32,000 nucleotides of DNA from Casimicrobiaceae bacterium (GCA_026646885.1 JAPKHK010000010.1:6703-38702), one strand, 5' to 3'. Positions 2 to 26,268 are shown, counted from the stretch's first letter. Translations and numbers: made by a program. The notes: generated from the letters alone by a model not told the origin.

Positions 2-1141
2 AAAATCATGCTCGACGCCATCAACACCGGCGTGTCGGACATCCATCTCGAACCCTATGAAAAGTATTATCGAATCCGCTATCGTTTGGACGGCGTGCTG
101 ATGGAGGTGGCGCAGCCCCCTCTGGTCATCAAGGACAAGATTGCCTCGCGCATCAAGGTGATTTCGAAACTCGACATCGCCGAGAAGCGTGTGCCCCAGG
201 ACGGCCGGCTCAAGCTGGTGCTGTCGAAAAACCGCGCCATCGACTTTCGGGTGAGCACGCTCCCCACGCTCTATGGCGAGAAGATCGTAATGCGTATTCT
301 CGACTCCAGCAGCGCGATGCTGGGGATCGACGCTCTGGGCTACGACCCGGATCAGCGCGAATACCTGCTCGACGCTATCCGCCGCCCCTACGGAATGATT
401 TTGGTGACGGGTCCCACCGGCAGCGGCAAGACGGTATCGCTCTACACTTGTCTGAACATCCTCAACGAGCCGGGCATCAATATTTCCACTGCCGAAGACC
501 CGGCGGAAATCAACCTCCCAGGTATCAATCAGGTCAACGTCAACGAAAAGGCCGGCCTCACTTTCGCCTCGGCGCTACGCGCTTTTCTGCGCCAGGACCC
601 GGACATCATCATGGTGGGCGAGGTGCGCGACCTGGAGACCGCGGATATCGCCATCAAGGCAGCACAGACCGGCCACCTAGTCCTGTCAACGCTGCACACT
701 AATGACGCTGCCACCACCCTCACGCGGTTGATGAACATGGGTGTCGCACCCTTCAACGTGGCTTCCAGCGTCATTCTCATTTCCGCGCAACGTTTGGCAC
801 GACGCCTCTGCGCGCAGTGCAAACACCCCGTGGAGATCCCGCAGGAAGCGCTCATGCGCGCCGGTTTTGCGCAGGAGGATCTCGACGGCAGCTGGATTCC
901 CTATGGCCCCGTCGGTTGCGAAAATTGCAAGCAGACCGGCTACAAGGGGCGGGTGGGCATTTACGAGGTTATGCCCATCACCGACGAGATGAGCCGGCTG
1001 ATCATGCGCGGAGCCAATGCCAAGGAAATTTCCGACCAGGCGCGCAGAGAGGGCGTTCGCACCCTGCGCCATTCTGGTCTCCTGAAAATAAAAGCCGGCG
1101 TGACCTCGCTCGAGGAAATCGAAGCGGTCACCAACGACTAA
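2..1141 (+). CDS. pilB: Type IV pilus assembly ATPase PilB, C-terminal part. The gene starts upstream of the window.
   Basis: The frame is open from position 2. Walker A GPTGSGKT, Walker [13 protein letters not shown], His-box [10 protein letters not shown], and a tetracysteine CAQC...CENC typical of GspE/PilB ATPases. Followed by pilC and pilD. Confidence 0.93.
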
Positions 1142-1160
1142 TTGCGACGAGGAAGACATT

Positions 1161-2387
1161 ATGGCTACTGCAACTGCGGTTCGTGGCAAGGATGTGAAGC
1201 AGTACAACTACTTTTGGGAAGGCGTGGACCGCGGCAACAAGCAGGTCCGCGGCGAGCTTCGCGCGCCTTCAGAAACGGTGGTCATTGCCACGCTGCGCCG
1301 CCAAGGCGTGCGGGTACTCAAGGTCAAACGGCAGACTCTGCGCGGTGGCGGCCGGATCACCGAGAAAGACATTACGTTCTTCACGCGCCAGCTCGCGACC
1401 ATGATGAAAGCGGGCGTGCCGCTCCTGCAGTCCTTCGATATCGTCGCACGAGGCCACTCCAATCCGCGGGTGTCGCGCCTGCTCCTGGAAATCAAGGGAG
1501 ATGTCGAGTCGGGCAGCGCCCTCAACCAGGCATTTCGCAAGCACCCGCTTTATTTCGACAACCTCTATTGCGACCTGATCGCGGCCGGCGAATCCGCCGG
1601 TGTCTTGGATGCCATTCTCGATCGTCTGGCCACCTATAAAGAGAAAATTCTCGCCATCAAGGGAAAGATCAAGTCCGCGCTTTTCTATCCGGCTGCGGTA
1701 ATTGTAGTGGCGGTCGTCGTCGTCGCCGTCATCATGTTGTTCGTGGTGCCCGCCTTCAAGCAGGTCTTTGCCAGCTTTGGCGCCGAGCTCCCCACGCCGA
1801 CCCTCATCGTCATCACCATCTCCGATTTCGTCGTTCAGTATTGGTGGGTTTTCGCGGGCATGGTTGCGGCCGGAATAGTCGCCTTCGTGTACGCGTTTCG
1901 AACATCCCAGAAGTTCCGCGATGCCATCGACCGGCTTTCCCTCAAGATTCCCGTGATCGGCGAAGTACTTCGCAAAGCAACCATCGCGCGCTGGTGTCGA
2001 ACGCTGCAGACCATGTTCGCCGCGGGTGTGCCGCTGGTTGAATCGCTCAATTCCGTAGCCGGCAGCGCGGGAAACGCCATTTATCGCGACGCGACCAAGA
2101 AGATTCAAAGCGAGGTCGCCACCGGCACGAGCCTGACCGTCTCGATGCAGAATCGCGAGGTGTTCCCCAACATGGTGGTTCAGATGACGCAGATCGGCGA
2201 GGAGTCTGGCTCCCTCGATGCAATGCTCGGCCGGGTTGCGGACTTCTACGAGAGAGAAGTCGACGAGGCCATCGATGCCTTATCGAGCCTGATCGAGCCG
2301 CTGATCATGGTCTTCCTCGGCGTCGTGATTGGCGGACTGGTCGTGGCGATGTACCTACCGATCTTCAAACTCGGGGCGGTCATCTAG
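1161..2387 (+). CDS. pilC: Type IV pilus inner-membrane platform protein PilC (GspF family)
   Basis: 408 aa with two GspF-like repeats and hydrophobic segments. C-terminal EPLIMVFLGVVIGGLVVAMYLPIF motif. Sits in pilB-pilC-pilD synteny. Confidence 0.93.
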   Translation: MATATAVRGKDVKQYNYFWEGVDRGNKQVRGELRAPSETVVIATLRRQGVRVLKVKRQTLRGGGRITEKDITFFTRQLATMMKAGVPLLQSFDIVARGHSNPRVSRLLLEIKGDVESGSALNQAFRKHPLYFDNLYCDLIAAGESAGVLDAILDRLATYKEKILAIKGKIKSALFYPAAVIVVAVVVVAVIMLFVVPAFKQVFASFGAELPTPTLIVITISDFVVQYWWVFAGMVAAGIVAFVYAFRTSQKFRDAIDRLSLKIPVIGEVLRKATIARWCRTLQTMFAAGVPLVESLNSVAGSAGNAIYRDATKKIQSEVATGTSLTVSMQNREVFPNMVVQMTQIGEESGSLDAMLGRVADFYEREVDEAIDALSSLIEPLIMVFLGVVIGGLVVAMYLPIFKLGAVI

Positions 2388-2402
2388 CGGATTATTGGCG
2401 CA

Positions 2403-3248
2403 ATGCAATTCCTTGCCCAGTATCCGAGCGTGTTTGCGCTCGGGGCGATGATCTGCGGTCTGATGATCGGCAGCTTTCTCAATGTGGTTATACATCGCCT
2501 CCCCAGGATGCTAGAGCGCGAATGGGCCGCGCAATGCGAGGAACTCGCCGGCAACGAGCTTGTAGAGGACGAGCCCTACAATCTCGCTGTGCCGGCTTCG
2601 CATTGCCCAGCCTGCAATCATAAGATCACGGCGCTGGAGAACATTCCGGTCTTGAGCTATCTGGTCCTGCGTGGGCGCTGCTCGGCGTGCGGTACACGCA
2701 TTTCCGCACGATACCCATTGGTCGAGGCGCTGGCCGGGCTAGGTTCTGCCGCCGCGGCATTCGCTTTCGGGCCGAGTTGGGCCGCCCTCGGTGCGGCGCT
2801 GCTGATCTGGACGATGATTGCGCTCACCTTCATCGACCTCGATACGCAGCTTCTGCCCGATGACCTGACGCTGCCGCTTTTGTGGCTGGGCCTGGTCTTC
2901 AACCTCTTCGGGACATTCACCGACCTCCATAGCGCGGTCGTTGGCGCCATGGCGGGCTACCTGTCCTTGTGGGCGGTTTATTGGCTGTTCAAATTGATAC
3001 GCGGTAAGGAAGGCATGGGTTATGGCGACTTTAAGCTGCTGGCGGCCATCGGTGCGTGGCTGGGCTGGCAGGTGCTGCCCATCGTGGTTTTTTTCTCCTC
3101 CTTGGTCGGCGCGATCACGGCAATCACCATGCTGACCTTGCGCGGCGGGGATCACCAGCAACCCATCCCCTTCGGACCGTACCTTGCCGTCGCAGGCGTG
3201 TTGGCTCTGTTCTGGGGCCGACCGCTGATGACCTGGTATCTAGGTTGA
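2403..3248 (+). CDS. pilD: Prepilin peptidase / N-methyltransferase PilD (A24 family)
   Basis: 281 aa polytopic protein. Cys pairs CPACNHKI...CSACG, conserved GMGYGDFKLLAA aspartyl-peptidase motif, pil synteny. Confidence 0.93.
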   Translation: MQFLAQYPSVFALGAMICGLMIGSFLNVVIHRLPRMLEREWAAQCEELAGNELVEDEPYNLAVPASHCPACNHKITALENIPVLSYLVLRGRCSACGTRISARYPLVEALAGLGSAAAAFAFGPSWAALGAALLIWTMIALTFIDLDTQLLPDDLTLPLLWLGLVFNLFGTFTDLHSAVVGAMAGYLSLWAVYWLFKLIRGKEGMGYGDFKLLAAIGAWLGWQVLPIVVFFSSLVGAITAITMLTLRGGDHQQPIPFGPYLAVAGVLALFWGRPLMTWYLG

Positions 3249-3261
3249 GCCGAGCGCGGAG

Positions 3262-3915
3262 ATGCCCCTAGTCATTGGTCTCACCGGGGGCATCGGATCG
3301 GGGAAGAGCACCGTCGCCGAACGCTTCGCCGCACGCGGCGCCGATCTGGTCGATGCCGATGCCATTGCCCACGAGCTTTCACGCCAGGGAGCACCCGGCT
3401 GGGAAGCGGTGCGAGCTGCCTTTGGCGACGCGGTCTTGCGCGCCGATGGCGAACTCGATCGCGCCCAGCTGCGCAATCTGGTCTTCCGTGATCCGGCCGC
3501 CAAGGTCAAACTCGAAGCCGCCTTGCATCCCCTGATCGGCGCCGAAATCGGCCGACGCATGGCCGGCTGGCAAGCGCCTTACGGACTCCTGATGGTGCCG
3601 CTGCTAATCGAGGGCGGGCGCTACCGCGATCAGATCGACCGGCTGCTGGTGGTCGACTGCCCGGAGGCCGAGCAGATTCGCCGGGTCATGGCGCGCAGCC
3701 ATCTGAGCGAGGTCGAGGTCCGCAACATCATGGCAGCGCAAGTCAGTCGCGCCGATCGCCTCGCGGAGGCAACCGAGATCATCGACAACGGCGGGACCTT
3801 GGCCAGCTTGGAACCTCAAGTCGATGCCCTGGATCGCCAATATCGGGAGCTTGCCGCGAACGCCGGAGCGTCCCTCCAGGAAAAAAAGGCAGCCAAGAAC
3901 CGAACACCCGTTTGA
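3262..3915 (+). CDS. coaE: Dephospho-CoA kinase
   Basis: N-terminal P-loop IGLTGGIGSGKST. The size and the position after pilD match the conserved pilBCD-coaE arrangement. The C-terminal tail is longer than usual. Confidence 0.9.
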   Translation: MPLVIGLTGGIGSGKSTVAERFAARGADLVDADAIAHELSRQGAPGWEAVRAAFGDAVLRADGELDRAQLRNLVFRDPAAKVKLEAALHPLIGAEIGRRMAGWQAPYGLLMVPLLIEGGRYRDQIDRLLVVDCPEAEQIRRVMARSHLSEVEVRNIMAAQVSRADRLAEATEIIDNGGTLASLEPQVDALDRQYRELAANAGASLQEKKAAKNRTPV

Positions 3916-3971
3916 AACTAACGCGTTTTGTAGCAGAATCTTTCCTATAAGATCTTTTTCGAGCCGCCAGC

Positions 3972-4730
3972 GTGATCCGTTACGAATTTCCGCTCAACGA
4001 ACGCGTGCGCATCCTGATGCGGCTCGAAGACATTTTTCGCCGAGCCCATTTTTTCCTCGCGAAGGATGATGCCATAGAGCATCATGCCGCCCTGCTGGCG
4101 CTGTTCGAGATCGTCGACGTAGCCGCGCGCGCCGACTTGAAGTCCGACATCCTGCAGGAGCTGGAGCGCCAACGGCAGATCTTCCTCGGCTGGCGCAACA
4201 ACCCATCGATCGCGCAAGACACGCTCGAAGAGATCATCGCCCAGATCGAGGAGGTCGGCGCCGAACTCCATTCTCTACAGGGAAAACTGGGTCAGCACAT
4301 GCGCGCGAGCGAGTGGCTGATGGGCGTCAAACAGCGGGCCAGCCTGCCGGGCGGTGTTTGCGAGTTCGATCTACCCGGCTACCACTACTGGCTCAATCTA
4401 TCGGCACAGGCTCGCCGCGCCGATCTTCGCTCATGGCTTGAGCCAATGCTGCCCGTGGAGAGTGCGCTGGGTATATTGCTGCGTCTCATGCGCGACAGCG
4501 GCAAGGTGGTGCACCATACTGCCCTGCACGGAGTGTTTCAGTTGATGCTCACGACGTCCAAGACCGCTCAGCTATTGCGCGTGGGGATCGAGGAGACCCT
4601 GGCCTGCGTGCCCGAAGTCAGTGCCAACAAATACGCCCTCAACGTGCGCTTTCTCGAACCGAGCCGCGGCGAGCGCCCGCGGCCTGTCGAGTGCAATGTC
4701 GAATTCGAGCTGGCTTTCTGCAACTTATGA
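3972..4730 (+). CDS. zapD: Cell division protein ZapD (YacF family)
   Basis: GTG start. The N-terminus [21 protein letters not shown] is typical of ZapD. Conserved coaE-zapD-yacG synteny. Confidence 0.85.
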
Positions 4731-4918
4731 AATCCGCCCGCCTCGTGCCTTGCCCCGCCTGCGGAAAGATCGCGCCTTGGAGCACCGAGAATCGCTTTCG
4801 CCCGTTCTGCTCGGAGCGTTGCAAGACGATCGATCTTGCGGCCTGGGCCACCGAGCAATACCGTGTCGCCCCCGAAAACGGCGGTGACGAAAGCCGGTTG
4901 CACGAATCGGATCAATAG
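4727..4918 (+). CDS. yacG: DNA gyrase inhibitor YacG (zinc finger)
   Basis: The ATG at 4727 overlaps the zapD stop (ATGA). CPACGK...PFCSERCK zinc-binding pattern. I prefer this start over the track start at 4691. Confidence 0.85.
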
Positions 4919-5697
4919 CTCCTTTTCGTCTGTAGCAAGCGCCTGTCACCTCTCTCGAGCGCGAGGCAGGTGAGCACACCGCTCGCATAAGCGCCTGTGT
5001 CTATGCCGATGCGATTGCGGCGCACCTCTGGTTCGGGTGCGATGCAATGACCATGCACCACCACGGCTCCGTGATCGACCTGCGCTTGCAAGAAGCGCTG
5101 GCGAATCCACACCAGATCGCGGGGGAGTTGCGCGCCGAGAGGCACACCAGGCCGCACCCCCGCGTGCACGAAGAAGTAGTCTCCCTCCCGATGGGTTAGT
5201 GGCAGGCCTTCGAGGAAGCTGCGATGGGCTTGGGGCAAAGCCGCGAGAAGTCCTTCACGAAGTTCGCTGAGCAGAGCCGGGGCGCGCGCGGCTGGGTCGG
5301 CCATCGGCAATCCGTATTGCGCCAAAACCACTGTTCCGCCGTAATTCAGCCAGTGCCGCCCAGTGCGCAGATCGCCGGCGATGAATCGCAGCATCAGATC
5401 TTCATGATTTCCCTTCAGGGCAATGACTTCCCAGCCCGGGGGCCGAAAACTCAGCACTCGCTCGACCACCGCGCGGCTATCGCGGCCGCGGCTGAAATAG
5501 TCGCCGAGGTACACCAGCACGTAGCGACGCGCCTGGCGTCTGGTCGCGTCGAGCAATATCCCGGCTTGAATCTCGGCAAGCAGGTCATCTCGGCCGTGAA
5601 TGTCCCCGATGGCATAGACCACTGTGTCTTCCGGAACCTCGCCCAGCGGCGCCGGCTCGCCCGGTGGCGGTAGGGCTTCACGCCAAGTGAGCGCCAT
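4912..5697 (-). CDS. Calcineurin-like metallophosphoesterase (PPP / ApaH-PrpA-like Ser/Thr phosphatase family)
   Basis: Motifs [15 protein letters not shown] (a GDxxDRG variant), GNHE, VHAG, VHGH. Starts 15 nt after the stop of the PaaK-like gene, so it is the last gene of the long minus-strand operon. Confidence 0.8.
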
Positions 5698-5712
5698 CGT
5701 GCCGCGCCCGCG

Positions 5713-7008
5713 TTAACGCTGCACGTGAAAACGCTTGGCCTTGAGCTCGAAGCGCGGTAGCGAATTGCGCGGCAGACTGTGCACCCTGGGCCGGAAAGAA
5801 AGCATGGAGTCCAGGCGCTCGGCAATGGCATGCACGAGGTTCGGATCGGCCCCCTCGCAAAGCTCGACCTCCACGTCCATCTCGTCCATCTGCCGAACCT
5901 TGTTCACGGTGATGCGAAACTCGTCCACCTCGCTGAACTTGCGCAGAATGTTCTCCACTCCAGCGGGAAAGACATTCACTCCCCGCACGGTCACCATGTC
6001 GTCAGCACGCCCGATGATGCCGCCCTCGAAGCGCAACGAGGTGCGCCCGCATTCGCAGCGCTTGGTGGTGGTACGAACGATATCGCCGGTCTTGTAGCGA
6101 ATGATGGGGAATCCCCAGCGCCCGAGGTTAGTGATCACTAGTTCGCCGCGCTCTCCCTCGGCGACGGGCTTACCGGTGCTCGGATCAAGCACTTCGGCGA
6201 TGTACTCACTCTCGATGAGATGCGTTCCCCCCGGCTGCATGCTGCATTCGAACGAATGCGCGCCCACTTCAGTGGCTCCGGCATGGTCGAAGCACTTCGC
6301 GCGCCAGGCGTCCTCGATGCGCGCCTTGGTGGCGGGAACGTTGGCTCCGGGCTCGCCCGCGTGCACCGTTGCCTTGATCGGAATGCTCGCGAGGTCGAAG
6401 CCGATCTCGCGCGCCACCTCTGCCAAGCGCAGGGCATAAGTGGGCGTGCAGCAAAGCACGGTGGCGCCCACATCGCGCATGAGCTCCAGGCGCTGGGGCG
6501 AATCGCGCCCGCCGCCCGGAATCATCATCGCGCCCAAGCGCCGCGCCCCTTCCGTTGCCGCCCAGAAGCCGACGAAGGGTCCGAAGGAAAAGGCCATGAA
6601 AACGCGATCGGCCGCAGTCACCCCAGCCCCGGCAAGCACATGCCCCCAGCAGCGACCCCACCACTGCCAGCCCTCCTCGGTGTCTGGAACCTTGAGCGGC
6701 ACGCCGGTGGTGCCGGATGTCTGGTGATAGCGTACATAGCGATCGACGGGATAGGTGAGGTTGTGCCCAAAGGGGCCGTGTACTGCCTGATCCTCCATTA
6801 GCTCCTGTTTGGTGGTCAAGGGCAAACGGGCAAGATCTGCGAGCGAACGCAGATCCTCCGCAGCCGCTCCCGCCGCTCGCCATTTCGCGGTATAGAACCG
6901 GTTCCGCTCCCAGAGCTCCCGTGCCATGGCCTGAAGCTTGGAGAGCTGCAAGTCCGCCAGTTGCTGGCGCGGCAGTGTCTCAGTGTGGGCGTCGAAATAC
7001 ATAGACAT
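5713..7008 (-). CDS. PaaK-like adenylate-forming ligase (phenylacetate-CoA ligase / coenzyme F390 synthetase family). Substrate unknown.
   Basis: 431 aa. N-terminal LQLSKLQAMARELWERNRFY, AMP-binding motif HQTSGTTG, and later YKTGD. The length and motif order are typical of PaaK-type ligases. Confidence 0.85.
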   Translation of the reverse strand: MSMYFDAHTETLPRQQLADLQLSKLQAMARELWERNRFYTAKWRAAGAAAEDLRSLADLARLPLTTKQELMEDQAVHGPFGHNLTYPVDRYVRYHQTSGTTGVPLKVPDTEEGWQWWGRCWGHVLAGAGVTAADRVFMAFSFGPFVGFWAATEGARRLGAMMIPGGGRDSPQRLELMRDVGATVLCCTPTYALRLAEVAREIGFDLASIPIKATVHAGEPGANVPATKARIEDAWRAKCFDHAGATEVGAHSFECSMQPGGTHLIESEYIAEVLDPSTGKPVAEGERGELVITNLGRWGFPIIRYKTGDIVRTTTKRCECGRTSLRFEGGIIGRADDMVTVRGVNVFPAGVENILRKFSEVDEFRITVNKVRQMDEMDVEVELCEGADPNLVHAIAERLDSMLSFRPRVHSLPRNSLPRFELKAKRFHVQR

Positions 7009-7015
7009 CTTTCGA

Positions 7016-7477
7016 TCAGGGTTGATGGTCGCGCATTTCGGAGTACACCGCTTGCTCCATGCGAAGCATTTCGGCGCGATTCTCCGCCGGCCATTCGTAA
7101 ACCAGCGCAGTAGTCGATACCCCGGGCCATGATTGATCCTTCACGCCGAAAACCTCCATTTCGTACATGGCAATCGAAGCGGGTGTCGCTGCGGCGATGC
7201 GTTCCTTCACTTTGCGCGCACGCCCCTTGATCAAGAACACGACGTTGCCGGACCCGATGATCTGCAGCGAAGCCTGGCCGCTGCGATCGATATTGGTCAT
7301 CGCCGAACCGCCCTGGTCCACTCCAAAGCGCAGGCGCTTGCTATCGAGCGCCAAAACCCAGGTGTAGGCCGAACTGGGATAACCATCCGCTCCGCAGCTC
7401 AACAGCAGCCCCGGCGCGCCGGGCCGAAGAAAACCGACCAACCGATCCGGCAGGTCTTTGGTGATATTGCCAATCAT
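7016..7477 (-). CDS. Pyridoxamine 5-prime-phosphate oxidase-like (split beta-barrel) FMN-binding protein
   Basis: I place the start at ATG 7477, preceded by AGGAG: AGGAGCAGGAAAAATG. This gives 153 aa with a PNPOx-family-like pattern (GLLLSCGADGYPSSAYTWVL...LRFGV...N). The longer track ORF (to 7876) would overlap the upstream gene. Confidence 0.7.
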   Translation of the reverse strand: MIGNITKDLPDRLVGFLRPGAPGLLLSCGADGYPSSAYTWVLALDSKRLRFGVDQGGSAMTNIDRSGQASLQIIGSGNVVFLIKGRARKVKERIAAATPASIAMYEMEVFGVKDQSWPGVSTTALVYEWPAENRAEMLRMEQAVYSEMRDHQP

Positions 7478-7512
7478 TTTTCCTGCTCCTAATTTCACGC
7501 GACGATGCCAGC

Positions 7513-8046
7513 TCAGCAAACCACGCTGACCGTGACCTCGTCGCCATCCTTGACCCCTAGCGTCTGCCGCACCGGAACCGCGGATATCACTTCGAACTTC
7601 TCCGGCGGATAGCCCGGTACTTCGGGAAAAACCACCGCCCCGGTCACACGTCCTGCCACAACGACGTGAAAACACTTGGCCGCACAGAACCCAGGCACCG
7701 GGTTGATAGAAATGCCCGGCTCCTGCGCCAGCACACGCCGGGCTGCCTCCCACTCGGTCCCGTGCAGGCGCAGATTGAACGTGCCTGGATAGGGTTCGAA
7801 ACCCAGCCGCGCCAGGAACTCCCGGCGCACCCATTCGAGCTGAGTGAAGTTCGCGCCCTCGCCCGCTCCCGAGCAAACAGCGCCCACCAGTACCAGTGCC
7901 TTGGCCTCGACTCGCTCGCTCGGCACAGATCCGACGCGCTCCTCGCCCGCAGCCGCGCCTGCCTGCGCAAGCCCCGGATCGGCGCTACCCAACGGCAAAG
8001 TGGTAAGTGCTGCCAGCGCCTGCGAACCCGGTGTGATCAGGGCCAA
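7513..8046 (-). CDS. Homolog of archaeal CTP-dependent riboflavin kinase (RibK / DUF120 fold). The start codon is uncertain.
   Basis: The core GAVCSGAGEGANF...LGFEPYPGTFNLRL...GAVVFPE...KFEVISAVPVRQTLGVKDGDEVTV aligns block by block, from memory, with Methanocaldococcus MJ0056 (GEVVSGLGEGRYF...LGFEPYEGTLNLKL...GAIVVP...LKDGDVIKI). The first ~50 aa are Ala/Gly-rich and may not be translated. An in-frame GTG lies at the SVPSER position. Confidence 0.7.
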   Translation of the reverse strand: MALITPGSQALAALTTLPLGSADPGLAQAGAAAGEERVGSVPSERVEAKALVLVGAVCSGAGEGANFTQLEWVRREFLARLGFEPYPGTFNLRLHGTEWEAARRVLAQEPGISINPVPGFCAAKCFHVVVAGRVTGAVVFPEVPGYPPEKFEVISAVPVRQTLGVKDGDEVTVSVVC

Positions 8047-8134
8047 GAGCGCACCTTCCGCCGCTTGCGCCCGCCGGTCGCGATGCTGTTCCAGCCCGCA
8101 GCCGCGATAAAACGACCCGATTCGGCAATGCCGC

Positions 8135-8719
8135 TCATTTTGCCTTCAGAGCCTCCCTCTCTTCGTTGCCGGTCCAGCGGCGAAAGAGATCGAGATCGAG
8201 ATCAAATTGATCGAGCGCTTTGTTCACCGACTGCATGATGATGTCTTCGAGGGTCTTGGGTCGGTGGTAGAACGCAGGCAGCGGTGGCACCAGCACCGCG
8301 CCGCTTTCGGTGACCTGCGTCATCAGGCGCAAATGCCCTGCATGCAGCGGCGTTTCGCGCAGCATCAATACCAACTTTCTGCGCTCCTTCAGACACACGT
8401 CGGCGGCGCGGATCAACAAATTGGTGTTGAAGCAACTGGCGATGGCCGAGAGTGTCTTGATTGAACAGGGTGCGATCACCATACCGGCGTGCCGGAAGGA
8501 ACCCGAAGAGATGCAAGCGCCGATGTCGTTGATGTCATGCACATGGCTTGCTAGTCTTTTCACGTCCTCGATACCGTAGTCGGTCTCATAGACGATCGTG
8601 CGCTTGGCGGAATCACTCATCACGACGTGCGTTTCCACACCGGTCTTTTGCAGCACTTCCAGGATGCGAATGCCGTAGATCGCGCCACTTGCCCCAGACA
8701 AACCCACCACCAGTTTCAT
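8135..8719 (-). CDS. ubiX: UbiX/Pad1-family flavin prenyltransferase (prenylated-FMN synthase)
   Basis: 194 aa. GLSGASG, SSGSF, APCSIKTLSAIA, RAADVCLKERRKLVLMLRETPL, PPLPAFYH motifs. Its ATG overlaps the stop of the upstream UbiD-like gene (ATGA). Confidence 0.9.
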   Translation of the reverse strand: MKLVVGLSGASGAIYGIRILEVLQKTGVETHVVMSDSAKRTIVYETDYGIEDVKRLASHVHDINDIGACISSGSFRHAGMVIAPCSIKTLSAIASCFNTNLLIRAADVCLKERRKLVLMLRETPLHAGHLRLMTQVTESGAVLVPPLPAFYHRPKTLEDIIMQSVNKALDQFDLDLDLFRRWTGNEEREALKAK

Positions 8720-10068
8720 GTCGTTTCCTTGTCAAGCGCCTCGGCCACGGCGCGTGCGCGCGCCAAGGCTGCCGGCGGAAAGGCTATTCTAGCGAAACTG
8801 CCGCTTGCGCCCCTGGTTGCATCGAATCCCATCTTGGAACCCTCGCCTGTGGCTGCGGAGGGGTCGATGACATAAGCCTCGGTGCCGGTCAGCATCACCG
8901 TATCGCGTGCCGCCTGAAAGCGCGTAGCCAGCGCCCAAGCGACATCCCGGGGGCTGCGGATGTCCACGTCATCGTCGACCACGGTCACACTTTTTAAGCG
9001 ACGGTCGAGACTGAGTGCCAGATGAATGAGGCGACGCACTTCCCGCTTCGAACAATCCTTGACGGCGATCACCGCGGCAAAGCTGCAAGTTCCGGGAGTG
9101 AGTTCGAGGTCCACGACCTCGCGCACCAGGTTTCGCAACTGGCCAAGAAGCTCCGCACCGCCGGCGAGCGAGAGCAGCACATCGACGTCGGCGGTAAAAG
9201 GCACTAGCGCCGGGAAGAGGAACTGCTCGCGGTGGGTAACGGCGCTCACTTCGACCACTGGGCTCTCGTTTTCGAAGTAGTAGCCGGTGTTTTCACCGAA
9301 GGGCCCTTCCGGTTCCCGGACCCCGGGAAGGACCCGCCCTTCGATGATCACCTCGGCCTGCGCCGGGACTTGCAAATCGACGCTGAGCGCGGGCACCAGT
9401 TCCACCGGCGCACCGCGCAGGGCCCCGGCGATCTCCATTTTGTCAGGCCCCTGGGGGCCGGTCTTCACGACTGCGGCGATCAGGGTCGCCGGATCGACTC
9501 CCAGTGCCACCGCCACTTCCAGCGGAGCGCCTCGCGCTTCGGCGTGGGCGAGGAATTGTGACAAAGGCGGATTGGCGAGAAAGATGCCGAAGCGTCGGCC
9601 GCCCTTCCACATCATGCGATGGATGCCCATCCCCCGCTGTCCGGTGACGGGATCTCGCGCCAGAACCATTCCGCAAGTGAGAAAGGGGCCGCCATCGCGT
9701 TCGTAGTGGGTCAGCAGCGGCAGAATCGCCGATAGGTCGGCCGGTGTCCGCGCCACCACGGCCTGGACCGGCGCTTCGCGTGCTGCGCGCGGGGGCACTC
9801 GCTGGGCGCTGCGTGCGAGGTAGGTGGAAATCAGGTCCGCCTCGGCGCAACCCAGGGCGTGGGCCGCCAGTCGCCGCGTTGCAAAGAGATTGCCGACGAC
9901 GCGACAGTTCGGATATCCCTGGATACGCTCGCACTGCACCACTTGCCCGCGTGTCTGCAACGCCGCCAAGGTGGCGGCGACCTCGAAGCGAGGGTCGAGC
10001 GGCGACTCGATCCGTAAGAGATCGCTGCCCAGGCTACCGAGAAAAGATCGCAAGTCCGCGTAGGTCAT
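8716..10068 (-). CDS. UbiD-family (prFMN-dependent) decarboxylase/carboxylase paralog. It is the third in the cluster and its role is unknown.
   Basis: 450 aa. UbiD hallmark EGPFGENTGYY, plus IHRMM and DVDIRSPRDVAWA blocks. Translationally coupled to ubiX. Confidence 0.85.
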   Translation of the reverse strand: MTYADLRSFLGSLGSDLLRIESPLDPRFEVAATLAALQTRGQVVQCERIQGYPNCRVVGNLFATRRLAAHALGCAEADLISTYLARSAQRVPPRAAREAPVQAVVARTPADLSAILPLLTHYERDGGPFLTCGMVLARDPVTGQRGMGIHRMMWKGGRRFGIFLANPPLSQFLAHAEARGAPLEVAVALGVDPATLIAAVVKTGPQGPDKMEIAGALRGAPVELVPALSVDLQVPAQAEVIIEGRVLPGVREPEGPFGENTGYYFENESPVVEVSAVTHREQFLFPALVPFTADVDVLLSLAGGAELLGQLRNLVREVVDLELTPGTCSFAAVIAVKDCSKREVRRLIHLALSLDRRLKSVTVVDDDVDIRSPRDVAWALATRFQAARDTVMLTGTEAYVIDPSAATGEGSKMGFDATRGASGSFARIAFPPAALARARAVAEALDKETT

Positions 10069-10114
10069 CGTTCGGCTTTGCGCGTCCCCCGCCCGAGTCG
10101 GGCGCGGGCGGCAA

Positions 10115-10369
10115 TCAACGATACTTCGCCGGCAGTCGCTGCACTTCAGAGAGCACCGCGATCGAGAACCGCCGATTGCTCAGCTGCCCTCGTCCCAAGC
10201 GCACTTGCAGCTGGTCGGTGTGTTTCTGGAGATCGCTCGACACTTGGCACTTGACGCGTTTGTAAGTGAACTTATGCAATCCAGGGTTGAGCGTGCGGAT
10301 GGTCAGCTCGAGTTCGGCATCCTCGGCCAATTCCTTTTCGCTGTTGACGAATACTTCCCACTGATTCAT
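10115..10369 (-). CDS. ppcC: Small (~10 kDa) subunit of phenylphosphate carboxylase. The subunit letter is assigned from memory.
   Basis: 84 aa ORF starting 13 nt after the UbiD-like subunit gene. The size and position match the 10-kDa subunit of the four-subunit Thauera enzyme. It has no recognisable domain of its own. Confidence 0.6.
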   Translation of the reverse strand: MNQWEVFVNSEKELAEDAELELTIRTLNPGLHKFTYKRVKCQVSSDLQKHTDQLQVRLGRGQLSNRRFSIAVLSEVQRLPAKYR

Positions 10370-10382
10370 TTGCGCGGTCTCC

Positions 10383-11831
10383 TCATTTCACCGGCGGAAA
10401 GCCATAAGCCGTCCAATTGGCGAGCACTTTGTCCTGGATTTCCTTGGGGTACACGTTCTTGAACGACACCACGGTCGGCACGTCGTTGATCGGGTCCCAA
10501 TCCACCGGCCAGAGGCAGTCGAACACCACTTTCGAGCCGATAGAGTACTTGCGCTCGTGCGGCGTGGCGAAAGGATAAAGCGGCGTCCCCGGAGCGTTCT
10601 TGTAAATGTGAATGCCGTTGGCCGGGTGGCAGCGGGTGCAGAAAGCGTGGTAGACCTCGTCCCAGTTGTAGATGTCGGTCTTGTCGTCGACCACCATCAC
10701 CATGTGGAACCAGGGTCCGAGCTTGGAACCGAAGGCGAGCTGGCCGATCTGCTGGGCCACGCCGGCATAGGTGGGCTTTACGCCGACGATCATCATGTGG
10801 TGCGTTGAACGCGGATGCATGTACACGCCGGTCACCGGAATGCCCTGGCTCTTCAAGAGTTTCTCCAACTCCAGGCCGAGCGAGAAAGAACGCAGCAATT
10901 GCCCTTCATCCTGCGGCACGCCCATGTTGGAGATGGTCATGGTGGCGTTGTTGCGGTAGGTGATGCAGTTCACCCGGAAGGTGACCCGGAAGTCGCGAGG
11001 GGATGTGCGATAGCCGGTGTATTCGCCGAAGGGGCCTTCCTCGACTTTGTAGTCGGGGCAGATTTCGCCTTCGAGAATGATCTCGGCGTCGGCCGGCACT
11101 TCGAGGTCATTGGTTTCGCATTTCACCAGGCGCGCGGGCTCCCCAGCGAGCATACCCACCAACTCCGGTTCGGGAATGGGCGAAGGCGCACAGGCCGCCA
11201 TGGCCGCCAGGGGCGACAAACCGATGGCGGTGGCGAAGGGGCAACTCTCGCCGCGCGGCAGGTAGTAGTCGTTCAGCGCCTTGCCCAGATCCGAGAAAGG
11301 GAACACCGCGCCCGACATGGTGCGCGGATCGAACATCATCTGCCGATACATGCCCCAGTTCACGTCGCCGCGCACCGGATGTTTGGTCACCACGGCGTGC
11401 CAGGTACCCACATAACGCCCGCCGTCGCCTTCATGCACCAGCGGCACGGGCAGCTTGCACAAGTCGACGTCGGCGCCCCGCAAGATGTTCTGCTTGCACG
11501 GAGCGTCCTTGCGGTCGACCACCACCGGTTGGATCACTTCGCCGTTGGTGCGCTTCAAATACTCCTTGCCGATCTCCGGCAGGCTGGAGGCTGGGTCCAT
11601 GCCCAACGCAATCGCCATGCGCCGATAGGTGGACAGCGGCGCGCCGAAATAGGAGAAGCCTGGATAATCCTTGATGCTCTCCATGAAAGGCGCCGGTGCC
11701 GCCAGCTCGCAAGCACGACGCACGATGGCGCCGGCCTCGTTTTCCCAATCGACTTCTTGCTTGATGCGCACCGCATCGCCGCTGGCGATGCAGGCCTCAA
11801 CGAACTCTCGGTTACTGCGGGGTGCAGCCAC
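10383..11831 (-). CDS. ppcA: Phenylphosphate carboxylase, UbiD-like large subunit (~54 kDa)
   Basis: UbiD family (EGPFGEYTGYR). I place the start at GTG 11831, behind AAAGGAGAAATAC. This gives 482 aa and removes the 17-nt overlap implied by the track start at 11897. Confidence 0.8.
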   Translation of the reverse strand: MAAPRSNREFVEACIASGDAVRIKQEVDWENEAGAIVRRACELAAPAPFMESIKDYPGFSYFGAPLSTYRRMAIALGMDPASSLPEIGKEYLKRTNGEVIQPVVVDRKDAPCKQNILRGADVDLCKLPVPLVHEGDGGRYVGTWHAVVTKHPVRGDVNWGMYRQMMFDPRTMSGAVFPFSDLGKALNDYYLPRGESCPFATAIGLSPLAAMAACAPSPIPEPELVGMLAGEPARLVKCETNDLEVPADAEIILEGEICPDYKVEEGPFGEYTGYRTSPRDFRVTFRVNCITYRNNATMTISNMGVPQDEGQLLRSFSLGLELEKLLKSQGIPVTGVYMHPRSTHHMMIVGVKPTYAGVAQQIGQLAFGSKLGPWFHMVMVVDDKTDIYNWDEVYHAFCTRCHPANGIHIYKNAPGTPLYPFATPHERKYSIGSKVVFDCLWPVDWDPINDVPTVVSFKNVYPKEIQDKVLANWTAYGFPPVK

Positions 11832-11880
11832 GTATTTCTCCTTTGAACGGACCTCAGGCTTGCGAAGCGCTCGACAAACC

Positions 11881-12390
11881 TCAGCCAATCTTGGCAAGAA
11901 TGGCGTCCCATTTGCCTTGGGTCTTCAGAATCATTTCCGCCACTTCGCGCACCGCACCCCGCCCACCGCGGGCCTGGGTAACGTATTCGGCACGGTCTTT
12001 GACGTCCTGCACGGCATCGGCCACCGCCACCGGGAGGCCCACGCGCTTCATCATCGACAAATCCACGAGGTCATCGCCGACATAACAAACCTGCTCGTCG
12101 GTGATGCCCATGTCCTTCAACATTTCCTCATAGGGCTCGGTCTTCTTCTTGATGCCCTCGTAGAAGCGCTTGATCTTCAGCTCTTCGGCGCGGTGACGCA
12201 CGGCCACCGACTTCTTCGAAGTGATGATCGCCACTTCCACGCCGGACATCATCAGCACCACCACACCCATCCCATCCTTGATGTCGAAGTTGCGCGATTC
12301 CACACCGTTGTCGTCGATGATGATATGGCCATCGGTCATGACGCCATCGACGTCGAGAATCACCAGTTTGATGTTTTTCGCTTTTTCCAT
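11881..12390 (-). CDS. ppcD: Phenylphosphate carboxylase ~18 kDa HAD-phosphatase subunit (KdsC-like)
   Basis: HAD motif I LVILDVDGVMTDG, motif IITSKK, motif GDDLVDL. Start taken at ATG 12390 (MEKAKNIK), 8 nt after GGAGAA, giving 169 aa. The subunit letter is from memory of the Thauera enzyme. Confidence 0.75.
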   Translation of the reverse strand: MEKAKNIKLVILDVDGVMTDGHIIIDDNGVESRNFDIKDGMGVVVLMMSGVEVAIITSKKSVAVRHRAEELKIKRFYEGIKKKTEPYEEMLKDMGITDEQVCYVGDDLVDLSMMKRVGLPVAVADAVQDVKDRAEYVTQARGGRGAVREVAEMILKTQGKWDAILAKIG

Positions 12391-12541
12391 GTTCATTTCT
12401 CCAAAAAATCGGCGGTGAAGAAACCGTCGCGAGCGGCTGCGGCGCAAGGCGGACGCAACGCAGCGACCGGCGCGTACTGGGCAGTTCGCGAGGAGCGCGA
12501 GCCGCGCCCAAGGCCGCGATGGGGCCGCGCAGCAGGCCTAT

Positions 12542-13966
12542 TCATCGCCGATCGATGCCGTATTCGTCCCACCGCCCCCTGATCTTCGCAAGGGTCTCCT
12601 CGTCCATGCGCGCTTCGATGGGTTTCTGTTTCCATTCATAAGGAATACAGGCGTCCATCAGAATGCGCGAGGTGGTGAGTTTGTCGGAGTTGGGGTCGAG
12701 CGCCGGATCGAGCGGGGTCGAGCGCCCGCGTTTGATCAGTTCGGTGCCGCGCATCGGGTCGTAGCGACAGGAAAGCGCCCAGAACACGCGCTGAAGGTCG
12801 TCGGCCATGATGTCTTCATCGACGGTGATCACGCCCTTGATGCCGTAGGAGCCGGTGTTGCTGGCAATGACCGCATCGGCCACCTGACGCGAATGGCCGG
12901 GATAAGCCTGCTTCACCGACACCACCGCCCAGAAGCGGCCGGCCGACTCGGGCATCACGCACACCGATTGGACGCCGGGGATTTTCATTTTTTCGAGTTC
13001 GGTCCACAGCGTGGCGGTGCGGGTGAAGGCGAGCAACATATGCACGTCGGTCACCGGCCGCCCCTGCCCTGTGGCCCACAAAATGGGGTTGTCGCGATGA
13101 AGGATCTGCTTCACCTCCAGCGCGGGTTTGGGGATGGGTTTGTGCAGCTCGTCGGTGTAGTACCCGGTGTACTCCGCGAAGGGCCCTTCGGGGCGGAAGT
13201 TCGAAGGATCGATCTCGCCTTCGAGCACGATTTCCGCGCCCGCGGGCACCGGCAGGCCGGTCATGGGCGCCATCAGAAACTCCGCTTGCTGGCCGCGCAC
13301 CGTGCCGGTGATGTCGAAGTCACTCGCCCCTTTGTGCATCAAGGTTCCGGCCATGAACAAGAGCGGGTCGCAACCGATCACCGCCGCGGCGGGCATCTTC
13401 TTGCCCATCTTGGCGTATTTTTTCATGATGCGCTCGCCGCGCTTGCCGGGCAGAATCTGCACGCCGCAGGTTTTGTTGTCGAGCATTTGCATGCGATAGG
13501 TGCCGAGGTTGGTCTCATTGGTCTCGGGGTCCTTCAGCACCACGAACACCGTGGTGCCGATATAACGCCCGCCATCCAGCGGGAAGAACTTTGGCACCGG
13601 GAACATGCTGAGGTCGACCTTGTCGCCGGAAATCACGTTGGCGAGCACCGGGCCGTCTTTCACTTCCTTGGCCTTGATGAGGCCCTCGGCGGTGATGGTT
13701 TTTTTCATCCAGGCCTGGGCCGATTCGCACATCGACAGGTGATGCGGCAAGCCCAACATGATGGCCAAGCGCTTGGTGGTGGCGAAAGCGCCGGTGAACA
13801 CCGGGGTGCTATAGCCCTTGACGCTTTCGAACAACAGCGCCGGCCCTTTCTTTTCTTCGGTGAGTTTGGAAACGTGCGAAATCTCCAAATTCCAACCCAC
13901 CTCGGTCTTGACGCGGGCGAGTTCTCCCGCCGCTTCGCATTGATCGATGAAATATCTGAGGTCCAT
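12542..13966 (-). CDS. ppcB: Phenylphosphate carboxylase, UbiD-like large subunit (~53 kDa)
   Basis: 474 aa UbiD family (EGPFAEYTGYYTDE). First ppc gene after ppsC, as in the described phenol cluster. Confidence 0.8.
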   Translation of the reverse strand: MDLRYFIDQCEAAGELARVKTEVGWNLEISHVSKLTEEKKGPALLFESVKGYSTPVFTGAFATTKRLAIMLGLPHHLSMCESAQAWMKKTITAEGLIKAKEVKDGPVLANVISGDKVDLSMFPVPKFFPLDGGRYIGTTVFVVLKDPETNETNLGTYRMQMLDNKTCGVQILPGKRGERIMKKYAKMGKKMPAAAVIGCDPLLFMAGTLMHKGASDFDITGTVRGQQAEFLMAPMTGLPVPAGAEIVLEGEIDPSNFRPEGPFAEYTGYYTDELHKPIPKPALEVKQILHRDNPILWATGQGRPVTDVHMLLAFTRTATLWTELEKMKIPGVQSVCVMPESAGRFWAVVSVKQAYPGHSRQVADAVIASNTGSYGIKGVITVDEDIMADDLQRVFWALSCRYDPMRGTELIKRGRSTPLDPALDPNSDKLTTSRILMDACIPYEWKQKPIEARMDEETLAKIRGRWDEYGIDRR

Positions 13967-13984
13967 GTTGCTACTCCGTCTGCT

Positions 13985-14671
13985 TCACAAAGTTTCGTTT
14001 CGGGCCGCCACCGCTTCGAGCACCTTGAGGCCCGCGGCCTCAAGAACGGCGGCCACCTTCTCCACGGGCGCGCTGTGAAAGCGCACGATGATTTTGCGCT
14101 CCCGGCTTTTTCCCGGCGTCGGCCTGTGCCCATTGGCGTTGCTGGCAATGGGGTAGATCGCTTGTACTTCGGCGCCCGCCCCTTCCACCAGGTCGGCGAT
14201 GCGCCCGATGATGCCGGGCTTGAGATCGAGCGGCCCCAGCGTGACGCCGCTGCGATTCTCCCAAGCACCCAGAAAATGCGCCGCCAGGGAGAGAATTTCG
14301 TTGGACGAGATCACGCCGACCACCTTGCCCTGGTCGAGCACCGGGAACTGCCCCACGTTCAACTCCTGGCCGCGGCGCAGGCATTCCTCCATGGTCTCGG
14401 TGGCCTCGACGGTGGCGGGGTTACGCACCATCACATCCTTCACCTTGAGGCGGTTGGCGAAGAAGTTGTATTCGTCCGGGTTCTGCGTGCGCGCCACGAA
14501 ATGCGCCGCGCGCAGGCAGTGCTGACGGGTGATGAGCCCCCGCAGCCGGCCCTCGTCGATCACCGGCAGGGCTTGCAGATTGTGTTCGGTGAGAATGCGT
14601 TTGGCTTCGGCGAGCAGCGTGTCGCCATGGACATGCTCGGGGTTGGTCTGCATCCAATTCCTGACGATCAC
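13985..14671 (-). CDS. ppsC: Phenylphosphate synthase stimulating protein (tandem CBS domains plus a C-terminal ACT-like region)
   Basis: 228 aa (~24 kDa). Two CBS-like repeats (LQALPVIDEGRLRGLIT ; VGQFPVLDQGKVVGVIS). GTG start 9 nt after AGGAG. Positioned after ppsB. Confidence 0.75.
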   Translation of the reverse strand: MIVRNWMQTNPEHVHGDTLLAEAKRILTEHNLQALPVIDEGRLRGLITRQHCLRAAHFVARTQNPDEYNFFANRLKVKDVMVRNPATVEATETMEECLRRGQELNVGQFPVLDQGKVVGVISSNEILSLAAHFLGAWENRSGVTLGPLDLKPGIIGRIADLVEGAGAEVQAIYPIASNANGHRPTPGKSRERKIIVRFHSAPVEKVAAVLEAAGLKVLEAVAARNETL

Positions 14672-14753
14672 GAGTGCAAGCTCCTAGGCAAACAGCTCCA
14701 GGCGCGAAGAAACCGCCCAACGCTCGCCAGCGCCGGAAAACGGCCTTTTACCA

Positions 14754-14812
14754 ACAAGGGGAGAAACCCCTTGTCTATCCCCCGCTCGGAACAAGGGGGC
14801 GCGCCCCCTTGT
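14754..14812. repeat. Pair of GC-rich palindromes sharing the arm ACAAGGGG/CCCCTTGT (REP-like, or an RNA stem-loop pair) in the ppsB-ppsC spacer
   Basis: 14754-14774 reads ACAAGGGG-AGAAA-CCCCTTGT. 14791-14812 reads ACAAGGGGGCGCGCCCCCTTGT, a perfect 22-nt palindrome. Both were read directly from the sequence. Confidence 0.6.
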
Positions 14813-14876
14813 AAATCCCCAAAACAGGCTCTTCGATTCATTTCCGCTCCAAAACTGAAAAAACCGGCGTTGCTCA

Positions 14877-15998: not shown

Positions 15999-16120
15999 CT
16001 TGCCGTTTACCCTGTGGTTAAACCTGTTTGAACCTGTTGTTGCCCGTCAGCAAAATTTCGCCGCCGCGAGGTGATTGGCGACCTTGCGCCGCCGCTCACC
16101 CCGCGAGGCAAAAGTGTTGC

Positions 16121-17956: not shown

Positions 17957-18044
17957 TTCGATGACTCCTCCAGGCGGTGATCGTTCTGAAACCTGACACT
18001 CGGGCGCACGCAAACCGGTGCGCCCGATGGTGTGACGACGCTAA

Positions 18045-24305: not shown

Positions 24306-24590
24306 GTGCTGGCCGAGATCGAGTCGTGGCCTGTCGATGCCTTGGCCGACTATGCCCGCATCGTTGAATTGTTGGCCGAGCATGGGCCGTATTTGCGTAT
24401 GCCGCACTCCCGCGCTTTTGGCGACGGGCTGTTTGAGTTGAGGCCGCGTGGTCGTTCTGGTATCGGGCGGGCGTTTTATTGTTTTCTGGTGGGTCATCGG
24501 GTTGTTGTTTTGCATGCGTTCGTGAAGAAATCGCTGCAGACGCCCGATAAAGAAGTGAAGCTTGCGCGCAAGCGCATGAAGGAGGTTTGA
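24306..24590 (+). CDS. RelE/ParE-superfamily toxin, phage Gp49-like/HigB-like. The annotated GTG start lies downstream of an in-frame TAG (see findings).
   Basis: The pattern ...LAEHGPYLRMPHSRAFGDGLFELRPRGRSGIGRAFYCFLVGHRVVVLHAFVKKSLQTPDKEVKLARKRMKEV is typical of Gp49/HigB-like toxins. Followed immediately by an XRE-HTH antitoxin gene. Confidence 0.75.
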   Translation: MLAEIESWPVDALADYARIVELLAEHGPYLRMPHSRAFGDGLFELRPRGRSGIGRAFYCFLVGHRVVVLHAFVKKSLQTPDKEVKLARKRMKEV

Positions 24591-24592
24591 AA

Positions 24593-24904: not shown

Positions 24905-24924
24905 AGAGCTGCCCAACCCTTCGG

Positions 24925-25439: not shown

Positions 25440-25581
25440 GGCCTGCCTCCTGACTCCGTGTGTTGTGCCCTCGTGCCGACCTTGTGGCCCGGCGCGGAAC
25501 CGCTCCGCGCAATCCACGATATTCCAGGAGACGGGCCACCTCACTTCAAACCATGATGTCTAGCCCGCAAAGCAAGGCCAT

Positions 25582-26184: not shown

Positions 26185-26249
26185 ATTCCACGTTGCGGCC
26201 TCTCAAGAAACACACGCCAGGTGACTCTTTGTTGCACCCGACCTGCTGC

Positions 26250-26268
26250 AGCGGGCTTCACCCGCTTT
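26250..26268 (+). terminator. Possible weak rho-independent terminator after the membrane-protein gene
   Basis: AGCGGG-CTTCA-CCCGCT followed by TT only. Short stem and a poor U-tract. Confidence 0.3.

Follow-up and report, generated by a model that had tools for sequence, protein, structure and literature searches.

The 32,000-nt stretch of the Casimicrobiaceae bacterium genome analyzed here (GCA_026646885.1, JAPKHK010000010.1:6703-38702; below, the window) carries at positions 7016-8719, on the minus strand, three consecutive genes for the flavin prenyltransferase UbiX, a homolog of the archaeal riboflavin kinase RibK (DUF120 family), and a small split-barrel protein with a PNPOx-like fold. 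UbiX converts reduced flavin mononucleotide (FMNH2) and dimethylallyl phosphate (DMAP) to reduced prenylated FMN (prFMNH2). These genes, the UbiD paralog beside them, and a metallophosphoesterase gene downstream are fairly likely to form a dedicated module for the supply and activation of prenylated FMN (prFMN) in a phenol-inducible phenylphosphate synthase/carboxylase operon. The elements of the proposed module, all on the minus strand, are listed below from the upstream end (ORF, open reading frame).

8716-10068, minus strand: third UbiD-family paralog of the operon (UbiD_N, UbiD, and UbiD_C domains; TIGR00148 286.5 bits, cut-off 244.85)
8135-8719, minus strand: UbiX flavin prenyltransferase (PF02441 E=1.6e-42; TIGR00421 247.8 bits, cut-off 108.9; PRK06029 263.4 bits, cut-off 188)
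7927-8134, minus strand: GC-rich spacer of 208 nt from UbiX to the probable start of the kinase, or N-terminal extension of the kinase ORF
7513-8046 (longest ORF; probable coding sequence 7513-7926), minus strand: DUF120/RibK riboflavin kinase homolog (PF01982)
7016-7477, minus strand: split-barrel PNPOx-like protein of 153 aa (PF01243 borderline; 2q9k/PRK06733 family)
4912-5697, minus strand: calcineurin-like metallophosphoesterase (PF00149 E=8.9e-12; weak similarity to ApaH/PrpE), at the end of the cluster

Genomic Context of the Kinase Homolog

One genome per GTDB species was scanned with the DUF120 alignment, and the best 80 of the 410 confirmed matches were kept; the counts of kinase loci given below refer to these 80. 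They include 21 species of Betaproteobacteria at 67-79% identity, mostly metagenome-assembled genomes (MAGs) of Rhodocyclaceae/Rhodocyclales but also one complete genome, that of Ca. Desulfobacillus denitrificans (L014). The kinase gene directly follows the UbiX gene in all 21 betaproteobacterial loci, and the gene order pps-ppcBCAD-UbiD-UbiX-DUF120-(Nudix)-split barrel-ligase-Metallophos is observed in 21/21 species, as far as the contigs extend. Because this order recurs in 21 species-level genomes, the shared placement goes beyond chance. The same order is found in two more divergent clusters, in which the UbiX, DUF120, Nudix, and split-barrel genes (L087) or the UbiX, DUF120, and Nudix genes (L089) overlap by 4-10 nt, which suggests translational coupling.

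The co-occurrence of DUF120 genes with UbiX/UbiD in other genomes, raised in a preliminary description of the region, extends to two further phyla. In a Chloroflexota MAG (L032), the kinase gene is immediately beside UbiX in the order MFS transporter-DUF120-UbiX. An example with a longer gene string is provided by the Binatia chromosome OZ244070.1 (L063, 9213-14450): XdhC-DUF120-UbiX-PNPOx_N-2q9k-like split barrel-Amidohydro_2-radical SAM/SPASM with a SEC-C motif. In the stretch examined, this prFMN-type toolkit comes without a UbiD gene. In archaea, UbiX is not encoded within 10 kb of DUF120 in any of approximately 50 loci. Because the bacterial DUF120 sequences form one clade, next to Bathyarchaeia-like sequences, in a rough neighbor-joining tree without support values, the UbiX-DUF120 linkage may be an old one and not the product of three inventions. 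Whether old or repeatedly gained, it is, to judge from these neighborhoods, kept across deep divergence.

Other bacterial DUF120 genes have a different setting. In Acidobacteriota (L028-L030, L035), DUF120 is fused to a HAD phosphatase and occurs in unrelated neighborhoods that are not linked to UbiX; the bacterial HAD::DUF120 fusions, including one from L092, are 349-361 aa long. Thauera and Aromatoleum have no record among the best 80 of the 410 matches of the species-representative scan. Since the betaproteobacterial matches end at 67% identity and those that follow reach at most 49%, the kinase seems restricted to a clade of almost entirely uncultured Rhodocyclaceae-like MAGs.

The Riboflavin Kinase Homolog

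The two ORFs downstream of UbiX that the preliminary description had reported are indeed present, all on the minus strand. Its description of the first one, 7513-8046, as a homolog of the archaeal riboflavin kinases dependent on cytidine triphosphate (CTP) is borne out by the match to PF01982 (E=1e-30; 106.6 bits, gathering score 25; positions 1-121/121 of the model) and to RibK of M. jannaschii (MjRibK; 2p3m/2vbu, E=3.6e-12). The motifs quoted for it are present as well, namely the phosphate-binding loop SGAGEG, LGFEPYPGTFNL, and VKDGDE.

The longest DUF120 ORF, the one picked by gene callers, starts with TTG at 8046 and encodes 177 aa. The homologs have 133-141 aa and align only from approximately residue 41 on. 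Because they account for no more than the final ~75% of the ORF, the true start of the kinase is probably the GTG at 7926, yielding a protein of 137 aa. The previously noted gaps of 88 and 35 nt are thus correct for the longest ORFs, and the first of them becomes a 208-nt spacer after UbiX if translation starts at GTG 7926. This spacer (7927-8134) is confined to identical metagenome contigs (L001-L006); in relatives, the UbiX and kinase genes abut or overlap. No repeat of the spacer was found in the window, and the spacer has neither an Rfam match nor a promoter- or terminator-like site. A regulatory RNA at this place was rejected: relatives lack the spacer, it is not repeated, and its folding shows no gain over shuffled sequence (z = +1.5).

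The residues of the kinase were compared in an alignment of the window protein with 21 betaproteobacterial, 9 other bacterial, and 49 archaeal homologs and MjRibK. Among the 36 columns conserved at 80% or more in the archaeal RibKs (n=49 and MjRibK), the betaproteobacterial clade has the same residue at approximately 27. The retained positions include G9, GxGEG, GFEPYPGT-N, Tyr101, Glu107, Arg115, and the D-G-D block. The RibK motifs have been assigned to binding of the triphosphate, the nucleobase, and riboflavin, and the conserved Glu (107 in M. jannaschii) is a ligand of both the metal and riboflavin in the Mmp model (bioRxiv 10.1101/2021.04.15.440061). The substrate residues are conserved to this extent, with differences in the PxxT and LRxxxL loops, which are considered below; most of the changes are conservative replacements such as Leu114 to Val and Leu44 to Phe. 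The latter turns GTLN into GTFN and is fixed across the betaproteobacterial clade, with Thr and Asn kept. Because the motifs for binding of triphosphate, nucleobase, and riboflavin are mostly retained, the DUF120 protein looks like a working riboflavin kinase. It is likely to make FMN for UbiX.

The Split-Barrel Protein

By sequence, the protein encoded at 7016-7477 is a borderline case, with 28.0 bits against the PF01243 gathering score of 28.1. It has no match to Flavin_Reduct (PF01613), and a single-sequence search of the PDB returned spurious antibody matches only. PdxH proper was ruled out, as PF01243 stays below the gathering score and TIGR00558 gives no match; the protein is PNPOx-like in fold only. 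A scan of 1.8 billion representative proteins defined a small family of 125 clusters, and a profile that combined 67 of its diverse members matched the uncharacterized structure 2q9k over its full length (E=6.3e-21). The NCBIfam model PRK06733 (NF005232) is matched by 64 of the 67 members; the window protein alone has 39 bits (cut-off 93). Weak matches to the F420-dependent PPOX subfamily model are given by 60 of the 67. Thus, the 2q9k protein of Exiguobacterium sibiricum (exig_1997), annotated in PRK06733 as a "hypothetical protein," belongs to the protein's own sequence family. A search seeded with 2q9k returned proteins of Exiguobacterium, Brevibacillus, Thermoflavimicrobium, and Paenibacillus, none of them named YclD.

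The split-barrel fold proposed earlier is well supported by modeling. The AlphaFold (AF2) model reached a mean confidence (pLDDT, predicted local distance difference test) of 96.4 with a deep family alignment (72 with a shallow one). In a Foldseek search against the PDB, 2q9k was the top match (TM-score 0.79/0.82), followed by all deposited entries of PhdC, at ranks 2-7 and 10-12 (TM-score 0.66-0.68; 157-162 aligned columns, full length). Generic PNPOx-like and F420-dependent split barrels scored 0.53-0.58 over approximately 120 columns. The model, a split barrel with a C-terminal helix, superimposes on PhdC. Candidate functional residues are the invariant Asp45, K-D-Q-S-W (113-117), and Y-E-W-P (127-130), the last of which immediately precedes the C-terminal helix. 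By position only, Asp45 and Y-E-W-P would roughly correspond to the conserved residues of PhdC (Glu47, Glu136, and the C-terminal ExW motif); Y-E-W-P, with an acidic residue followed by Trp, would lie about where PhdC has ExW.

PhdC of Mycolicibacterium fortuitum is a prFMN maturase that generates the active iminium cofactor by oxidation of the prFMN radical. The activity of E. coli UbiD rises about ten-fold with PhdC and likewise with YclD of Priestia megaterium, a distant homolog of PhdC (PMC13040415). The suggestion of the preliminary description that the flavoprotein is a candidate maturation factor has therefore gained weight, since the closest solved structures after the uncharacterized 2q9k all belong to PhdC. 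PhdC is the best functionally characterized structural match (TM-score 0.67). Like the window protein, it is a small (~150 aa) split barrel of the FMN-binding type that has a C-terminal helix, and its gene lies beside a UbiX/UbiD pair. The two also differ. Similarity of their sequences is marginal and limited to the N-terminal half; the window protein is betaproteobacterial, whereas homologs of PhdC have been reported from Actinomycetota only (PMC13040415); and the oxidant used with PhdC in vitro, O2, is an unlikely acceptor in the anaerobic pathway of the window's host.

The split-barrel gene accompanies UbiX/UbiD in the window, in all 18 betaproteobacterial loci whose contigs reach this position, and in L063, L093, L094, and L099. 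The order is split barrel-UbiX-UbiD in L093 and UbiD-split barrel in L094, the latter with neither UbiX nor the kinase. In L099, a split barrel::His_Phos_1 fusion (P0212, 6317-7483) directly follows UbiX in a different pps/UbiD cluster. Another fusion, P0200 (L098, 322-1167; 281 aa), joins DUF120, with somewhat divergent kinase motifs, to a split barrel that shares 48% identity with the window protein. In an Ardenticatenaceae genome (Chloroflexota; L092), the order is split barrel-His_Phos_1-HAD::DUF120 (8321-9370)-PNPOx_N. Because of the P0200 fusion and of the L092 cluster, which lacks UbiX, the kinase and the split barrel are, as far as gene neighborhoods tell, linked to each other and not only via UbiX. 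This slightly favors a role of the split barrel close to FMN, in its reduction or hand-over. Taken together, a PhdC-like maturase or chaperone is a tentative assignment, an FMN reductase or carrier a less probable one, and the remaining probability falls to some other function.

Proposed Supply of Dimethylallyl Phosphate

Nudix hydrolases convert dimethylallyl diphosphate (DMAPP) to DMAP, the co-substrate of UbiX, for prFMN synthesis (PMC12359138). A Zn-ribbon Nudix gene of 168-174 aa lies between the DUF120 and split-barrel genes in 16/21 betaproteobacterial loci (e.g., L009, 10403-10927), and a truncated remnant of 69 aa is present in L010. No Nudix gene separates the kinase and the split barrel in L008, L014, L023, and the window, and one of the 21 contigs ends too early. 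The window has just 35 nt (7478-7512) at this place, and tblastn of the whole window revealed no Nudix remnant. The lineage of the window, L008, Ca. Desulfobacillus denitrificans, and L023 appear to have lost this gene. The preliminary description had considered that the kinase might be an alternative to a MutT/Nudix gene. This did not hold: since the two co-occur in 16/21 loci, the kinase and the Nudix gene are partners, not alternatives.

Of the 21 related loci, 17 yielded a metallophosphoesterase gene, and among the four others a minimum of three lie on contigs that end before its position; in L087 and L089, it directly follows the split-barrel gene. Each variant of the module examined has a phosphohydrolase, either Nudix and/or metallophosphoesterase in the betaproteobacterial clusters or the histidine phosphatase fused to the split barrel in L099. 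In the Nudix-less window, the metallophosphoesterase (4912-5697) may cover the step from DMAPP to DMAP or some other trimming of phosphate.

The Phenol Operon

The region 7016-8719 belongs to a minus-strand gene string of approximately 13 kb with short gaps throughout. Its other members and the regulatory elements are as follows (PEP, phosphoenolpyruvate).

18352-20064, plus strand: XylR/DmpR-type sigma-54 activator (XylR_N/V4R/Sigma54_activat), divergent from the string
18045-18060, minus strand: sigma-54-type -24/-12 promoter-like element TGGTAT-N5-TTGCA, ~30 nt upstream of the ppsB-like ORF, read by eye
16121-18013, minus strand: ppsB-like PEP-utilizer protein, first gene of the string (Pfam/NCBIfam)
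14877-15998, minus strand: ppsA-like (Pfam/NCBIfam)
13985-14671, minus strand: CBS protein (Pfam/NCBIfam)
12542-13966, minus strand: phenylphosphate carboxylase beta (UbiD-family)
11881-12447, minus strand: phenylphosphate carboxylase delta/HAD (NCBIfam)
10383-11897, minus strand: phenylphosphate carboxylase alpha (UbiD-family)
10115-10369, minus strand: phenylphosphate carboxylase gamma (PF09662)
5713-7008, minus strand: PaaK-like aryl-CoA ligase (AMP-binding and AMP-binding_C_2), below every NCBIfam equivalog cut-off

The carboxylase subunits (10115-13966) are identified by TIGR02723 (1040 bits), TIGR02724 (1036 bits), and TIGR02726 (305 bits), and the alpha and beta subunits are presumed to be the main clients of prFMN. 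The UbiD paralog at 8716-10068 is neither of these subunits and always precedes UbiX in clusters of this type; its stop overlaps the start of UbiX by 4 nt, and it is likely another prFMN client, or a helper. The PaaK-like ligase is pathway context outside the cofactor module.

Control of the whole string by a PheR-like mechanism is expected from the element at 18045-18060 and the divergent regulator, and, given this sigma-54-like promoter and XylR-type activator, the phenol operon appears inducible. The element differs by two mismatches from TGGCAC-N5-TTGC and was missed by a pattern scan for sigma-54 sites that allowed one mismatch. No site was found in the intergenic gaps of the string by a scan for sigma-70 promoters and terminators, which is uninformative for sigma-54 promoters. 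The Rfam scan of 4500-17000 revealed no riboswitch or other RNA family, with two sub-threshold chance matches only.

On one side of the cluster lies a plus-strand housekeeping block (8-4730) with pilB/pilC/pilD-type genes (T2SSE, T2SSF, prepilin peptidase A24) followed by coaE, zapD, and yacG; its junction with the phenol cluster is also present in contigs L001-L003. On the other side, past the regulator, the GC content dips to 0.545-0.57 in 20100-32000, and the large ORFs 21127-22053, 23022-23774, and 30007-31968 have no Pfam match or a sub-threshold one. This segment may be an acquired island.

Proposed Function and Alternatives

In the proposed module, the archaeal-type kinase would phosphorylate riboflavin to FMN and, unlike bifunctional RibF, would not continue to flavin adenine dinucleotide (FAD). 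A phosphohydrolase, Nudix in most relatives and presumably the metallophosphoesterase in the window, would provide DMAP from DMAPP, and UbiX would combine it with FMNH2 into prFMNH2. The split-barrel protein would either reduce FMN or hand it over to UbiX or, acting like PhdC and YclD, bind prFMN, help to oxidize it, and deliver it to the three UbiD-family proteins. We infer that the genes of the module are co-transcribed. The view of the preliminary description that a cofactor-supply module is attached to UbiX/UbiD has been strengthened by the synteny in 21 species, the gene overlaps in relatives, the DUF120-UbiX pairs of Chloroflexota and Binatia, and the presence of the split barrel beside UbiX/UbiD elsewhere.

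Several observations weigh against this reading. For the kinase, the scores are far below the NCBIfam equivalog cut-offs for archaeal RibK (ribK_Meth NF040694, 59.3 vs. 168 bits; PRK14165, 85.8 vs. 279), and 208 nt separate its gene from UbiX in the lineage of the window alone. The riboflavin loop PxxT reads PEVP and the nucleobase loop LRxxxL reads VRQTLG, with Glu and Arg conserved; contacts in these two loops are made mainly via the backbone (bioRxiv 10.1101/2021.04.15.440061). For the split barrel, the family profile matches PhdC sequences (9nk3, 9nk0, 9srg) with E=5e-4 to 3e-3 in the N-terminal half (positions 7-76), and many generic PNPOx proteins outrank PhdC in the profile match. UbiX/UbiD genes are not found near the split barrel in L092, L095, L096 (the Exiguobacterium 2q9k ortholog), and L097. 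A Brevibacillus member (L097, 6001-8013) adjoins an HpaB-type flavin-dependent monooxygenase, which hints that some members of the family are ordinary flavin reductases or donors. The DUF120 fusion P0200 is known from one 2-kb contig. Finally, DUF120 and the split barrel occur in L092 and L098 together with a further protein of the PNPOx type and with phosphatases, and UbiX is not found within 7 kb; the DUF120-split barrel pair may thus have a flavin function independent of prFMN.

Part of these observations would fit the same module with a different role of one component. The split barrel might act before UbiX, as an FMN reductase or carrier supplying FMNH2, and not as an oxidative maturase of the PhdC type; we consider this somewhat unlikely. 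It is consistent with the natural fusion P0200 and with the proximity of the kinase and the split barrel in L092. HpaB, the neighbor in Brevibacillus, is the oxygenase of a two-component flavin monooxygenase and needs a reductase partner, and PhdC itself has been placed, as a distant relative, among the HpaC-like flavin reductases (PMC13040415). However, the closest characterized structures are PhdC and not reductases, Flavin_Reduct is not matched by the window protein, and no NAD(P)H-binding motif was identified in the split barrel. The UbiD-split barrel pair of L094, with no UbiX or kinase beside it, fits a step at the level of UbiD.

The position of the DUF120 gene after UbiX would be meaningless if this gene encoded a housekeeping riboflavin kinase, as a non-orthologous replacement or backup of the kinase domain of RibF. 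Such a role is compatible with the intact kinase motifs, and the Acidobacteriota HAD::DUF120 fusions in unrelated neighborhoods would fit a general function in riboflavin/FMN metabolism. Against it stand the location of the gene in the phenol operon after UbiX in 21/21 betaproteobacterial species, an apparently inducible operon being an odd home for an essential gene, the overlaps of the kinase gene with its neighbors by a few nucleotides, and the recurrence of the UbiX adjacency in two further phyla. The housekeeping role is improbable. Still more improbable is an older bacterial unit of DUF120, split barrel, and phosphatases that makes or recycles a different flavin (a modified flavin or deazaflavin) and was inherited by the phenol clusters: the triad of DUF120, a 2q9k-like split barrel, and a second, orthologous PNPOx_N protein (46-59% identity) in L092, L098, and L063, the His_Phos_1 and HAD phosphatases accompanying it in L092, and the weak matches to the F420-dependent PPOX model would agree with such a unit, but the second PNPOx_N protein is absent from the window, the kinase is beside UbiX in the betaproteobacterial loci, L032, and L063, as is the split barrel beside UbiX/UbiD in L093, L094, and L099, and the surroundings showed no gene for the tailoring of flavins or the synthesis of deazaflavins.

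Relation to Known Systems

The kinase of the window resembles archaeal RibK (MJ0056; PF01982; EC 2.7.1.161) in being a single domain of ~135 aa that matches PF01982 over its full length and has GxGEG, GFEPYPGT-N, the Glu, the Arg, and the C-terminal DGD. It differs in its bacterial origin, in the scores below the equivalog cut-offs, and in having GTFN, PEVP, and VRQTLG for GTLN, PxxT, and LRxxxL. Its gene is located in a catabolic operon beside UbiX and not in a housekeeping or RbkR-regulated context. According to a review of the family from 2017, orthologs of RibK are absent from Bacteria (PMC5397151). The difference of the split-barrel protein from 2q9k is again one of context, the gene for the latter being away from UbiX/UbiD, and of its low PRK06733 score.

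Part of the gene set has precedents. Phenol clusters with UbiD-like and UbiX genes, supply of DMAP by Nudix proteins, LpdD, and PhdC/YclD are already known. We take the phenol clusters of Thauera aromatica and Aromatoleum to consist of pps-ppc plus ubiD-like, ubiX-like, and MutT-like ORFs, with the ubiD-like and ubiX genes downstream of ppc, as in the window. LpdD is a prFMNH2 chaperone, accessory to UbiX/UbiD (PMC10865409). It shares with the Nudix supply of DMAP (PMC12359138) a common logic, that is, extra genes by UbiX/UbiD that feed substrates or escort the cofactor. The fold of LpdD is different and resembles Pba3/4, and the Nudix gene found in most relatives is missing from the window. 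In the searched literature, four papers mention both a riboflavin kinase and UbiX, and none of them, to judge by title and abstract, deals with a connection of the two; to this extent, a dedicated riboflavin kinase is new to the described UbiX/UbiD accessory sets.

What is new, as predicted from genome comparison, is a conserved bacterial clade of archaeal-type RibK physically coupled to UbiX, along with single fusion proteins in which the split barrel is joined to the kinase domain in one case and to a phosphatase in the other. The predicted PhdC-like fold of the PRK06733/2q9k family in anaerobic phenol operons is also new. Archaeal-type RibK, thought to be confined to archaea, would thus have a conserved pathway-linked niche in bacteria.

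There is demand for UbiD-family (de)carboxylases as catalysts in CO2 fixation and aromatic chemistry, and many resist activation outside their host because the supply of prFMN and its oxidative maturation fail. The operon type described here, found in nitrate-reducing phenol degraders, bundles candidate helpers for FMN supply, DMAP supply, prenylation, and PhdC-like flavin handling, and it offers testable genes for co-expression with UbiD carboxylases and for anaerobic maturation of prFMN. The physiological oxidant of prFMN in strict anaerobes was stated as an open question in the 2025 paper on PhdC (PMC13040415). In its boldest form, which we regard as unlikely, the proposal is that kinase, phosphohydrolase, UbiX, and split barrel are a self-sufficient bacterial line of prFMN assembly, ending in an O2-independent PhdC-like maturase or chaperone. 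If this were true, the module would be a candidate for how anaerobes oxidize prFMNH2 to the iminium form, and would provide a ready co-expression kit for UbiD carboxylases that are hard to activate, such as phenylphosphate carboxylase.

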